DNA from: Camelus ferus
Lineage: Eukaryota
Direction of reading: 5' to 3'
NCBI RefSeq assembly: GCF_009834535.1
Contig: NC_045696.1
Coordinates: forward strand, 40,054,001 to 40,118,000
Length of the DNA stretch: 64,000 bases
Shown here: piece by piece, positions 43,273 to 51,868 of the stretch
Position numbering within the stretch: position 1 is the first letter of the stretch
How the letters are laid out: the number at the start of each line of letters is the position of its first letter
Translations under genes and position numbers: made by a program
Notes under the pieces: generated by a model
What the model saw: only the letters and a program-made list of their open reading frames with translations
What the model was told of the DNA's origin: nothing
The model's database searches: none

Positions 43273-45933
43273 AACTCTTCCAGAAGATTTAAAAGGAGGG
43301 AGTACTCCCAAACTCATTCTATGAAGCCACCATCACCCTGATACCAAAACCAGGCAAAGATACCACCAAAAAAGAGAATTACAGACCAATACCACTGATG
43401 AACATAGATGCAAAAATCCTTACCAAAATATTAGCAAATAGAATCTAACAGCACATAAAACAGATTATACATCATGATCAAGTGGGGTTCATCCCAGGAA
43501 CACAAGGGTGGTTCAACATACACAAATCAATCAATGTAATACATCACATCAACAAAAGAAAGGACAAAAACCACATGAACCTCTCAATAGATGTAGAAAA
43601 AGCATTTGATTAAATTCAACACCCATTCATGATAAAAACTCTCACCAAGGTGGGTGTAGAGGGAGCATATCTCAACATAATAAAAGCTATATATGACAAA
43701 ACTACAGCCAGCATAGTACTCAATGGTGAAAAACTCAAAAGCTTCCCACTAAAATCTGGGACAAGACAAGGATGCCCACTATCACCACTCCTATTTATCA
43801 TAGTCTTGGAAGTCCTAGCTACAGCAATTAGGCAAGAGAGAGAAATAAAAGGAATCCAAACTGGAAAAGAAGAGGTAAAAGTGTCACTACATATATGCCT
43901 ATGACATGTTACTATACACAGAAAACCCTGAAAGGTCCACACAAAAACTACTAGAGCTGATCGAAGAATTCAGCAAGGTAGCAGATTACAAGATTAACGT
44001 TCAAAAATCAGTTGCATTTCTTTACACTAACGATGAATCATTAGAAAAAGAAAGTAAAGAAACAATCCCCTTTAAAATAGAACCCAAAGTAATAAAATAA
44101 CTAGGAATAAATCTAACCAAGGAGGTGAAAGAATTATACACAGAAAACTATAAACTATTGATAAAGGAAATTAAAGAAGACTTTAAAAAATGGAAAGATA
44201 TCCCATGCTCTTGGATTGGAAGAATCAGTATTGTTAAAATGGTCACACTGCCCAAGGCAATCTACAGATTTAATGTAATCCCTATCCAATTACCCAGGAC
44301 ATATTTCACAGAACTAGAACAAATCATAATAAAATTTATATGGAACCATCAAAGACCTAGAATTTCCAAGCATTACTGAAGAAAAAGAAAGAGGCTGGAG
44401 GAATAACTCTCCCAGACTTCAGACAATACTACAGAGCTACAGTAATCAAGACAGCATGGTATTGGTACCAAAACAGGCATATAGACCAACGGAACAGAAT
44501 ACAGAGCCCAGAAATGAACCCACAGACTTTTGGTCAACTAATCTTCGACAAAGGAGGCAAGAATATACAACGGAATAAAGACAGTCTCTTCAGCGAATGG
44601 TGTTGGGAAAATTGGGCAGCAGCATGCAAATCAATGAAGCTAGAACACTCCCTTACACGATACACAAAAATAAACTCAAAATGCATCAAAGACTTAAACA
44701 TAAGACAAGATATGATAAACCTCCTAGAAGAAAACATAGGCAAAACATTATCTGACATACATCTTAAAAATGTTCTCCTAGGGCAGTCTACCCAAGCAAT
44801 AGAAACAAAAGCAAGAAGAAACAAATGGCACCTAATTAAACTTACAAGCTTCTGCACAGCAAAGAAAACCATAAGTAAAACAAAAAGACAACCTACGGAA
44901 TAGGAAAAAATTTTTGCAGATGAAACCGACAAAGGCTTGATCTCCAGAATATATAAGCAGCTCATATGACTTAATAAGAAAAAAAACAAACAACCCAATC
45001 CAAAAATGGGGAAAAGACCTAAACAAGCAATTCTCCAAGAAAGAAATACAATTAATCAATAGGCACATGAAAAAATGTTCAATATTACTAATTATTAGAG
45101 AAATGCAAATCAAAACTACAATGAGGTATCACCTCACACCAGTCAGAATGGCCATCATTCAAAAGTCCACAAATGACAAACGCTGGAGAGGCTGTGGAGA
45201 AAAGGGAACCCTCCTACACTGCTGGTGGGAATGCAGTTTGGTGCAGCCACTGTGGAAAACAGTATGGAAATTCCTCAAAAGACTAGGAATAGACTTACCA
45301 TATGACCCAGGAATCCCGCTCCTGGGCATATATCCAGAAGGAACCCTACTTCAGAATGACACCTGCACCCCAATGTTCATACCAGCACTATTTACAATAG
45401 CCAAAACATGGAGACAGCCTAAATGTCCATCAACAGAGAACTGGATAAAGAAGAGGTGGTATATTTATACAATGGAATACTACCTAGCCATAAAAACCAA
45501 CAACATAACACCATTTGCAGCAACATGGATGTTCCTGGAGAATGTCATTCTAAGTGAAGTAAGCCAGAAGGAGAAAGAAAAATACAATATGAGATCGCTC
45601 ATATGTGGAATCTAAATAAATAAATAAATAAATAAATACAAAACAGAAACAGACTCATAGACATAGAATACAAACTTGTGGTTGCCAAGGGGGAGGGGGG
45701 TGGGAAGGGACAGACTGGGATTTCAAAATATAGAACAGATAAACAGGGTTATACTGTATAGCATGGGGAAATATATACAAGATCTTGTGGTAGCTCACAG
45801 CAAAAAAAAAGTGACAATGAATATATATGTTCATGTATAACTGAAAAATTGTGCTCTACACTGAAATTTGACACAACACTGTAAAATGATTACAACTCAA
45901 TAAAATATGTTTAATAAAAACAAAACAAAAAAA
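43273..45933 (+). mobile_element. Young lineage-specific L1, 5'-truncated (ORF2 RT and C-terminal domain, 3' UTR, tail); ORF2 disrupted
   Basis: ORF track gives [31 protein letters not shown] and HCWWEC. In-frame stops and frameshifts are present, and the FADD motif reads YAYD near 43895. Host L1 resumes after the tail. Confidence 0.95.
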
Positions 45934-49010: not shown

Positions 49011-49274
49011 TTTCTAGACGTGACACTAAAAGTACAATTCATAAAAGGAAAAAACCGAGAAATTGGATCTCATTAAAAAAAATTTTCCTGTGAAAGACCT
49101 TGTGATAAGGATGTAAAGACAAGTTACAGACTAGGAGAAAACATTTGCAAACCACATATACAACAAAGAACTAGTATCTTTGATATATAGAGAACATCAA
49201 AATCCAGCAGTAAGACAAACAATCTAGTTAGAACAAGGGTAAAGGAGGTAAAGACACATTCACTGAGAATGAAA

Positions 49275-49720
49275 GCCTCCGTCTCCAGGACGCCGGCACC
49301 ACAGCGCGGCCCGGCTGACACAGGGCCTTTTTCTCCCCAGAATCTTGACGCCATCCCTCCCAGCCCAGCCGGGACCATGTTCACCTGTACCTGTCGGTAA
49401 AGGAATGGCTGCTGCTCCTCAGCCCCCTCCTCCTCCTCCATCATCACAGCAAGCGGGCCCTGCGGCTGGAAGGCCCAGTAGGATTTTCCCGCCAGGGCAC
49501 CAGGCCGCGCGGCAAAGTGGGAGACCGGTAGCCAAAGCGAGAAGGTGCCGCCTGCTTGGCGCGTGCTCCCTGGCGGCGGCTGTGGGAAGGGTGCCTCGCG
49601 GCCAGCTGCTCCAGCCCCACCCCGGCGCCCTTGGGGACTCCACACCCAGCTCAGTGCCCCGCTCAGTAGTTAACACAGTTCTTGGAAACGCGCGGGAGGG
49701 CGTGCGTGCGTGTGTCTGTA
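49275..49720. promoter_or_regulatory. Small CpG island with an E2F site (TTTTCCCGCCA, 49484-49494)
   Basis: Roughly 30 or more CpGs by hand count in ~440 bp; the only such cluster in the window. Exact TTTSSCGC match. Confidence 0.75.
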
Positions 49721-49866
49721 GGGACAGCAGTACACAACCCTTTGTAAATTCCATGCTGTTGTAACCTGGGTAGGCCTTGCAAAATGCAATGTGGGTTTTT
49801 ATAATTCTGTCACTGTACAGTCAATAAGTCAGATGGGTAAATGCTTGATTTCTATCCCATTTAGTG

Positions 49867-49902
49867 AATAAACTGCTCACCCCATTAACACTGGGGAAAA
49901 AA
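49867..49902 (+). terminator. Candidate polyadenylation signal and residual A-run
   Basis: AATAAA at 49867-49872; A6 at 49897-49902, at the insert/L1 junction. Confidence 0.4.
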
Positions 49903-51868
49903 CGTACAGATGGCAAGTAAGCACAGGGAAAAAAATCAACATAATTAGTCAGTAGGTAAATGCAAATTAAAGCCACAAGGAGATATTACAATGGCTATTA
50001 GAATGGCTAAAATAAAAGAACAGTGACAACACGAAATGTTACTAAGGATACAAAGAAATTGGATCACTCATATATTGCTGGTAGGAATATAAAATGGTAC
50101 AGCCACTATGGCAAACAGTTTGGCAGTTTCTTCTAAAACTTAAAACACATTCACCACACAACCCAGCAGTTGGACTTTTGGGCATTTATCCCAGAGAAAT
50201 AAACACTTATGCTCACTTGAAATCTCTATCTGAATTTTTATAGATTTATTTGTATTAACCAAAACTGTTAACAGCCTAGATGCCCTTCAATAGGTGAATA
50301 GTTAGACTGTGGTACAATCATACCATGAACTACTCAGGAGAAAAAAAAACCAAACCCGTTGATACACATGACAATCTCTCCAGAGGATTATGCTAAGTGA
50401 AAACGACTCTCCAGGGAATTCTGCTATATGAAAAGATTACATACTGTATGATTCCTTTCATATAACATTCTTGAAATAACAAAACTACAGAAATTAAAAA
50501 CAAATTGTTTGTCAGGGATGCAAGAAGGGCTGGGGATGAGAGAAGTGGGCGTGGCTAAAAAAAGGGCAACATGAAGAATCTTTGTCATGATATACATGTT
50601 CTATATCTTTTCATATCAATTTCAATTTTAATTTCCTGGCTATAATATCACAGTATAGTTTTGTAAGATGTTACCATTGGGGAAAACTGAATACAGGGTA
50701 CATGAGATCTCCCTGATAATTTTTACAACCACTTGTGAATCTATAATTATCACAAAAACAAAAAGTTTAGAAAACAATAATGTTTTTAAAGGAAGGAGCC
50801 CAGCATTGAATTCAGAAGACCTTGTTTTTGTTCAGTATCACTACTCAGGAGCCTATGACTTTGAGTAAGTCTCTTCGACTTTCAGAACCATGGTTTTCTA
50901 ATATGTAAAATGTGTAGATTAGATAAATTGACTTCTGAAATCAAGTTACAATTGTATGATTCTTTGATAGGTTTTTATTTCCTAGTAAAGAATGTATGCA
51001 TAAAATACACCATTCTCCATACAACTGAAATGGAGTAGATGGGGATTATCTCAGATCTGGGAAAACAGGCACACCCAACTGTGGAGATCCTGCACTTGGG
51101 AAAGACCATTTGCTTGCTTATTAATGGACCAATCTCTGAAGTGTCCTCAACCCAGCCCAAGATAGCATTTCCCCATGTTAGAGATGAGAAACCGGTTTAA
51201 GATACAATTAGAAACTCTACCTTCTCAGCCTACCAGAAGATCAAATAAATATTTCCATTACAGAATTTTTTTTTTCACTTTTTCAGAAAGCCAAACTTTT
51301 CCCAAACGCTGTTTCACAGGGAGAGGAGATAACCCCCATATGTATGGCAGGTCCTTTAATTCACTCTAGCTTCTATATTGAGTTTGGCTTAGTTATCAGG
51401 ACTAACATGTTTACATGACATTTGGAGCATGCTTCTACTGGTCTTCTGTCTGTCACCAGTTAATAAGACTCCAAAACAGTCTGGGTATAAATCCACTGCT
51501 CTTGCTGAAAGCTAGTCTATAAATATTATATTCACACAGTGGTTTTTATCAAGTTATTTTTTCTATTAAAATCTAAAAGGTCTTCAAGGAACTTTAAAGA
51601 AACAAAATTATTATTTAAAAACCACACGACTTTTAAATTCACAAAGGTTTTTCTTAAAACAGTTATACTATTATCCTGAGTTCAAGTTGCATTGGTACTG
51701 CTATATACACACAAAATAATAGAGTGACATAATTCTGTGTGTATAATTCACACCTTGTAATACACACAAAACAATGGAATAATGAAAGTTTGGGAGTGTC
51801 CTCTTGTGATTCTAACTAATTAACTATGGAAATTATCCTATATGCTTAAATATAAAGCTGGGGTCCCT

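Follow-up and report, generated by a model that had tools for sequence, protein, structure and literature searches.

Introduction

Several described systems bear a resemblance to the locus reported here. Class 1 templated insertions are characterized, in the part of the source that defines them, as LINE-1 ORF2p-mediated copies of transcripts other than mRNAs, which are polyadenylated 10-30 nt behind a 'cryptic' signal, and the same part names 5'-TTTT/A-3' as the consensus site of the L1 endonuclease (PMC5110952). In the promoter retrotransposition set out by Okamura and Nakai in 2008, sense transcripts originating from upstream starts carry the core promoter along with spliced exons, and the passage of that paper in which the word 'antisense' appears concerns insertions on the opposite strand (PMC2386082). 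The extract on PPP1R26P1, a retrocopy located in intron 2 of RB1, portrays a CpG island that was borne by this retrocopy and constitutes an active, imprinted alternative promoter (PMC3839921). Moreover, for 28% of human gene transcription start sites (TSSs), starts of downstream antisense transcription are reported at a distance of no more than 2 kb, the human transcripts concerned being called 'not apparently stable' in the corresponding section (PMC4972320).

The locus to be compared with these systems is a copy of the 5' region of CENPS that splits an L1 remnant in the genome of Camelus ferus. The whole stretch of DNA analysed, comprising 64 kb of the contig designated C1, is referred to as the window.

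Results

A 630-bp insert within an L1 remnant

The features of the insert and of its host element are given below in positions of the window; for the insert, + denotes the orientation of the putative template RNA, which is antisense to CENPS.

49073..49272, +: left half of the host L1 ORF2 remnant; in 13 of 19 intact copies from the genome, its alignment immediately adjoins the right-flank match on the upstream side
49273..49902, +: whole insert, 630 bp; the L1 is broken after 49272 and resumes at 49903
49276..49893, +: block homologous to the 5' region of the real CENPS gene, matching C13:6998976-6999571 on the opposite strand (query positions 5-622, E 4.7e-90)
49276..49388, -: copied start of CENPS intron 1 (~115 bp), by alignment; corresponds to C13:6999458-6999571
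49389..49390, -: copied splice donor GT of exon 1, in the context CAG/GTACAG
49391..49444, -: coding copy of CENPS exon 1, 54 nt, translating as MMEEEEGAEEQQPFLYRQ, which deviates from the real exon at two amino acids
49445..49893, -: copy of ~430 bp before the ATG (5' UTR, CpG-island promoter and upstream DNA), by alignment; corresponds to C13:6998976-6999401
49867..49872, +: AATAAA, at insert position 595 of 630; neither strand of the insert has another canonical polyadenylation hexamer
49894..49902, +: GGGAAAAAA, a short A-run (A6 at 49897-49902), unmatched in the source, 21-24 nt past the hexamer
49903..50250, +: right half of the host L1 ORF2 remnant, with 40 scored matches at 73-78% identity and 15.5% divergence from a 19-copy consensus

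A GC-rich block of about 630 bp that splits an L1, as pointed out in the initial annotation, was thus confirmed. Across 49300-49700, the GC content reaches 0.64-0.70, compared with 0.30-0.39 in the flanks (rise zone ~49270-49720), and the insert as a whole displays a GC content of 0.589 and an observed/expected (o/e) CpG ratio of 0.61, the latter amounting to 0.18-0.20 in the flanks.

The interrupted element, whose right flank yields 5367 first-look candidates genome-wide, is presumably the C-terminal part of L1 ORF2, an assignment made with the help of copy number; in Pfam searches of both L1 flanks, with stops read as X, no family was matched. According to the junction consensus of 19 intact genomic copies, the window is colinear across the break (gaatga/cgtacag). 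Both flanks could be aligned in 12 of these 19 copies, and all eight informative ones, defined by a left alignment reaching to within 12 nt of the junction, project a junction gap of 0 (five copies) or 1 bp (three copies); the remaining four give gaps of -2, -2, -7 and 16, with alignments that end 23-53 nt before the junction. Hence, the insert comprises 49273-49902 without a target-site duplication relative to the intact genomic copies and without any loss of target bases, and the clean rejoining of the L1 halves, which had been noticed at the outset, is borne out. At the site of the insert, the L1 endonuclease sequence 5'-TTTT/A-3' is absent, and the 3' end of the primed strand would read ...CTGTACG, which lacks a T-run.

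Just left of the host fragment, the segment 48700-49000 (+) resembles what we take to be the 3' end of another L1 copy, and the host L1 seems to be one among several nested or abutting L1 pieces. At 43614-43901 (+) of the window, a 96-aa open frame matches RVT_1 (E 9.5e-10) and represents a fragment of a retroelement reverse transcriptase, which was the only family detected by Pfam among the 53 longest of the 92 open frames of at least 75 aa in the window.

Correspondence with the 5' region of CENPS

The minus strand of the insert reads ATGATGGAG... (also given as ATGATGGAGGAG...). On this strand, an ATG and 16 further codons followed by CAG/GTACAG had originally been recognized; this reading was reproduced, the start consisting of two ATGs (ATGATG), which brings the total to 18 codons instead of the 17 counted earlier. 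Past the donor, the frame continues openly into the copied intron, to 106 aa in total, by chance.

The proposed resemblance to CENPS was substantiated within the same genome, where exon 1, on contig C13, has its ATG at 6999402 (+) and the sequence MMEEEEGAEEQQRFSYRQ/GTACAG. The donor motif is identical in both places (C13:6999453-6999461), the alignment extends over the whole 630 bp, and chance is excluded as an explanation of the similarity. A genome search with the insert had been expected to return a match spanning the CENPS promoter, exon 1 and intron 1; it was obtained on C13, and the reciprocal search from C13 in turn retrieved C1:40103276-40103893, which is the block in the window.

Contig C13 harbours the real gene in its proper surroundings. 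Exons encoding CENP-S (PF15630) are located at 7002746-7002871 and 7007279-7007353, all six 6PGD matches lie upstream of CENPS at 6987022-6992359 (+), and all three DFF-C matches lie downstream of it at 7021850-7025508 (-). None of the 33 PF15630 matches falls on C1. With the later exons as well as PGD and DFFA all on C13, the insert is not the real CENPS gene, and the absence of PGD and DFFA around it agrees with the presence of 6PGD and DFF-C exons on C13 only. What the window contains of the gene is limited to ~430 bp before the ATG, the 54 coding nucleotides of exon 1 and ~115 bp from the start of intron 1. Nor does the insert constitute an ordinary processed pseudogene, since exon 1 stands alone, promoter and intron are retained and the tail is antisense; in both respects, the initial annotation had judged correctly.

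Additional PF15630 matches were observed elsewhere in the genome. One of 38.1 bits at C9:44259885-44259980 (-) (locus L008), which covers profile positions 42-73 and includes one TAA, is possibly an ordinary processed pseudogene of the CENPS mRNA, unrelated to the antisense copies. Another, of 31.3 bits, is situated inside a 269-aa open frame at C3:46508922-46509062 (-) (locus L010) and could represent a different gene with a histone fold or a retrogene. On C20 and C21, numerous weaker matches have the appearance of histone clusters.

Sister copies on C9 and C32

A search of the animal's own 2.09-Gb genome with the 631-bp query revealed four loci, namely the window, the source on C13, C32:23500143-23500723 (E 1.2e-90) and C9:36495910-36496361 (three pieces, 81-86% identity). 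When 1380 bp of C13 served as the query instead, these four loci and no others were recovered; all four of the first-look candidates were scored in both genome searches. The insert had at first been regarded as an orphan, a notion that does not survive the finding of further copies on C9 and C32.

The C9 copy spans C9:36495827-36496387 (locus L018:4827-5387), while the copy on C32 is the longest of the three with ~1.3 kb (C32:23500062-23501373, locus L017:4562-5873) and reaches ~820 bp into intron 1. Both extend 83 bp beyond the window copy and lose homology at the same base, C13:6998893, which is located 19 nt past AGTAAA on the antisense strand. At this end, both carry A-runs on the antisense strand, which appear on the CENPS-sense strand as TTTATTTTT in C9 and as T10-A-T4 in C32. 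The C9 copy is flanked by an imperfect direct repeat of 10-13 bp, TCTCCTC..TTT, constituting a target-site duplication; for the C32 copy, no target-site duplication is recognizable. At the 5' side the copies end differently, corresponding to C13:6999571 in the window, 6999597 in C9 and 7000272 in C32, as with 5' truncation or alternative starts, and in the window and C9 copies these ends lie ~115-140 bp inside CENPS intron 1.

All three copies are colinear with unspliced genomic DNA, the C9 copy having an internal gap of 163 bp; spliced-out introns thus furnish no proof of an RNA intermediate. A spliced intron was considered for this gap and rejected, as no GT..AG was seen by eye at its borders. 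In the C32 copy, the ATG has been lost. Both the segment C13:6999930-7000110 of CENPS intron 1 and its counterpart in the C32 copy contain, we assume, a MIR-type SINE fragment, the transfer of which to C32 fits an unspliced template. Moreover, when compared with the window and C32 copies, which are in mutual agreement, the present promoter on C13 (6999100-6999260) exhibits several small deletions (6, 16 and 2 bp); the copies therefore keep older states of a fast-changing promoter.

With regard to the surroundings, the C9 copy is found ~7 kb downstream of exons for 7tm_2 (secretin-family receptor) on the + strand. About 3-10 kb beyond the C32 copy (L017:9103-9998, L041:2558-5721), there are open frames with Pfam matches to Gag_MA, Gag_p30, RNase_H, the C-terminal part of the MLV integrase and TLV_coat; the element adjoining this copy is an endogenous gammaretrovirus-like provirus.

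Polarity of the copies and probable traces of a tail

The initial annotation did not take an antisense polarity into account and missed the AATAAA at 49867-49872 with the subsequent A-run on the + strand of the window. Homology to the source ends at CACTG (49893), 21 nt past this hexamer, and GGGAAAAAA comes next. At the corresponding site, the related loci continue with ACCAAGGAG (C13), ACGAAGGAG (C32) and ATAAAGGAG (C9), and the L1 consensus is devoid of an A-run. From this arrangement of letters, GGGAAAAAA appears to be the remnant of a poly(A) tail. Its location lies within the 10-30 nt past a signal at which such a tail is expected, and with 6 A's it is short; furthermore, the letters up to 'GGGGAA' could derive by divergence from the source (GACGAA), in which case 4 A's would remain.

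At the proximal hexamer, AATAAA is present in the window and C9 copies and AACAAA in present-day C13 and in C32. If the proximal site was used, AATAAA must have been the ancestral state or an allele of the source; alternatively, the window and C9 copies changed in parallel. In each of the three copies, the end is marked by an A-run on the strand antisense to CENPS, at a distance of 19-24 nt from the preceding polyadenylation hexamer. The antisense strand of the 1380-bp source has only three hexamer sites, and by estimate a random end would come to lie 10-30 nt behind one of them in ~5% of cases. Antisense polarity and tail together thus point to an ordinary mechanism for moving promoter and intron DNA, that is, reverse transcription of an antisense RNA.

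Divergence and decay of the CpG island

Over the span of the window copy, its K2P distance amounts to 0.216 from C13 (551 columns), 0.238 from C32 and 0.187 from C9, the distances of C13 from C9 and C32 being 0.149 and 0.195, respectively. In terms of uncorrected differences, the window and C13 deviate at 18.5% of 551 aligned sites. Non-CpG changes private to the window copy were counted at 14 of 280 sites (5.0%) in four-way columns and at 25 of 384 (6.5%) in three-way columns without C9, whereas the host L1 departs from its 19-copy family consensus at 47 of 304 non-CpG sites (15.5%); the insert is therefore clearly younger than its host L1. Under usual mammalian rates, which are uncalibrated here, its age would be tens of millions of years. 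Among 384 four-way columns, 2:2 site patterns unite C13 with C9 in 12 cases, with C32 in 9 and with the window in 1.

Formally, a CpG island is longer than 200 bp and has a GC content above 0.5 and an o/e ratio above 0.6. The window insert passes these thresholds, its 448-bp core having a GC content of 0.665 and an o/e ratio of 0.67, and no other segment of the 64-kb window is CpG-island-like. Ancestral CpGs have been kept at 15 of 39 positions in the window, as opposed to 27 of 36 in C13, 24 of 30 in C9 and 28 of 34 in C32 (75-82% outside the window), so that retention in the window copy falls short of that of the source promoter. Of the 24 lost CpGs, 15 have decayed to TG or CA, which looks like the signature of germline methylation and of a dying CpG island. 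The window copy is probably inert and decaying, embedded in gene-poor and repeat-rich DNA.

The o/e ratio of the C9 copy amounts to 0.98, and within 50 kb there is no second island-like segment. The C32 copy, by comparison, lies among 19 such segments in 50 kb and beside an endogenous retrovirus; its CpG retention was set aside as a sign of function on account of the CpG-rich surroundings and the adjoining retrovirus.

Discussion

Origin of the insert

Taken together, the insert is probably an old and fixed cDNA copy of an unspliced, polyadenylated CENPS-antisense RNA, which was copied at least three times, giving rise to the copies in the window, on C9 and on C32. Such an RNA would start in CENPS intron 1, run back over exon 1 and the CpG-island promoter and be cleaved at polyadenylation signals in the spacer between PGD and CENPS. 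Since this RNA would extend over the promoter, a cDNA made from it would carry the promoter, exon 1, the donor and the start of the intron, a combination that is impossible for an mRNA retrocopy. Reverse transcription of the same antisense RNA would have occurred on at least three independent occasions, one for each of the copies. In the window, the cDNA would have entered an existing L1 remnant, either bluntly or through endonuclease-independent reverse transcription at a break, and the copy would subsequently have lost most of its CpGs and ended inert.

The window copy works like a retrocopy and at the same time lacks two defining features of target-primed insertion by L1; a target-site duplication and a primed strand ending in a T-run, instead of ...CTGTACG, would be expected of the canonical event. 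Since neither a target-site duplication nor a loss of target sequence nor an L1 endonuclease site is found, a blunt or endonuclease-independent variant of integration is the likeliest. Of 154 words sampled from C13:6998775-7000375, a region that includes DNA upstream of the promoter, a share of 0.74-0.90 was represented in four RNA-seq runs belonging to a single study; these shares, which derive from unstranded contigs and possibly from DNA or pre-mRNA, lend weak support to an antisense RNA.

The same junctions raise the question of an event at the DNA level, in which end joining sealed a double-strand break within the L1 by capturing or copying ~620 bp of genomic DNA from the CENPS promoter and no RNA intermediate was involved. 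This scenario, which we hold to be rather unlikely, accords with the rejoining of the L1 without target-site duplication, target loss or a TTTT/A site as well as with the marginal tail of 6 A's, and human Class 2 templated insertions with such junctions exist according to the section that describes them (PMC5110952). It leaves unexplained, however, why the insert ends 21-24 nt past its only AATAAA and is then followed by A's that are foreign to both source and target, and why A-runs that agree in polarity occur in two sister copies at a single shared source base, one of these copies having a target-site duplication. Three independent captures of a single 1.4-kb region, all with the same polarity signature, would be an unlikely coincidence.

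While the reverse-transcribed antisense RNA is thus preferred with respect to origin, the possible activity of the insert is a separate matter. The initial annotation had spoken of a transplanted promoter cassette, which holds for what was copied and fails for activity, given the loss of 24 of 39 ancestral CpGs. That the insert drives a new minus-strand transcript by means of its copied ATG and splice donor is very unlikely. The insert does possess the copied promoter, an ATG, 18 codons that are intact and a GT donor, and the formal CpG-island thresholds are exceeded (GC 0.59-0.67, o/e 0.61-0.67) by this segment alone in 64 kb; the excess of CpG loss over the other three loci, with 15 CpGs converted to TG or CA, the Pfam yield of nothing except the RVT_1 fragment among the longest frames of the window, and the merely accidental openness of the frame beyond the donor all speak against a live promoter. 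An assembly artefact or a real CENPS gene at this position is scarcely conceivable. No point in favour of either was found, the later exons and the PGD/DFFA synteny reside on C13, and the divergence from the source at nearly a fifth of sites, accompanied by directional CpG decay, shows that the window copy is not misplaced source sequence.

Significance of the copies

The apparent paradox that promoter and intron DNA moved without the remaining gene is explained, on the reading of a reverse-transcribed antisense RNA, by an ordinary mechanism: promoter, first exon, donor and intron start would have travelled without the rest of the gene because their carrier was antisense RNA. The three copies would then provide a natural example of an antisense promoter RNA that was copied back into the genome three times, and they imply a polyadenylated CENPS-antisense RNA in the germline. 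In addition, they preserve ancestral states of the fast-evolving CENPS promoter. For the window itself the outcome is mundane, namely a decaying fragment.

The C9 sister copy, which from its CpG content still looks like a protected island, is the more interesting lead. If any of the sister copies were an active promoter, a route of promoter birth beside the one via sense transcripts would be added. That reverse transcription of promoter-crossing antisense RNAs recurrently seeds complete CpG-island promoters, together with first exon and splice donor, at new loci, with the C9 copy maybe as a live orphan promoter, is a speculation that we consider decidedly improbable.

Comparison with known systems

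A processed pseudogene of the CENPS mRNA would share the coding sequence of exon 1 with the insert, which differs by the lack of later exons, by the retention of promoter and intron and by a tail on the opposite strand.

In relation to the templated insertions, the portions of the source that define the two classes permit a comparison with each of them (PMC5110952). Class 1 is resembled in the distant template, in the tail 10-30 nt past a signal and, for C9, in the target-site duplication, whereas the window copy has neither a target-site duplication nor a 5'-TTTT/A-3' site, is old and fixed instead of polymorphic, and stems from an antisense template that crosses a promoter. With the break-repair patches of Class 2, the window copy has in common the absence of a target-site duplication and of an endonuclease site as well as a target rejoined around the patch; it differs in the A-run behind a hexamer, short as this is (A6), and in two sister copies with hallmarks of retroposition.

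The account of PPP1R26P1 provides a parallel in so far as a truncated retrocopy brings a CpG island to a new locus; that island is described as active, while the window copy displays CpG decay and no sign of use (PMC3839921). Downstream antisense and convergent promoter transcription, as outlined in two reports, corresponds to the proposed template in starting downstream of the TSS and proceeding antisense through it (PMC4972320, PMC11735407). The passage on downstream antisense RNAs terms them unstable, in contrast to the template required here, which would have been polyadenylated and present in the germline of this species (PMC4972320).

Among the titles and abstract openings retrieved from the literature, neither an antisense-RNA retrocopy of CENPS nor a promoter transfer by antisense RNA was found, which is not proof of their absence in print. 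A related outcome is that of the promoter retrotransposition of Okamura and Nakai, where, in the part of the 2008 paper that is pertinent here, a CpG-island promoter is likewise relocated through an RNA transcribed over it (PMC2386082). Unlike the sense transcripts dealt with in that part, the carrier at the CENPS locus would be an unspliced antisense RNA that brings along promoter, exon 1 and intron start and nothing of the remaining gene (PMC2386082). The particular point of the present case is hence the antisense RNA as carrier, three times over.
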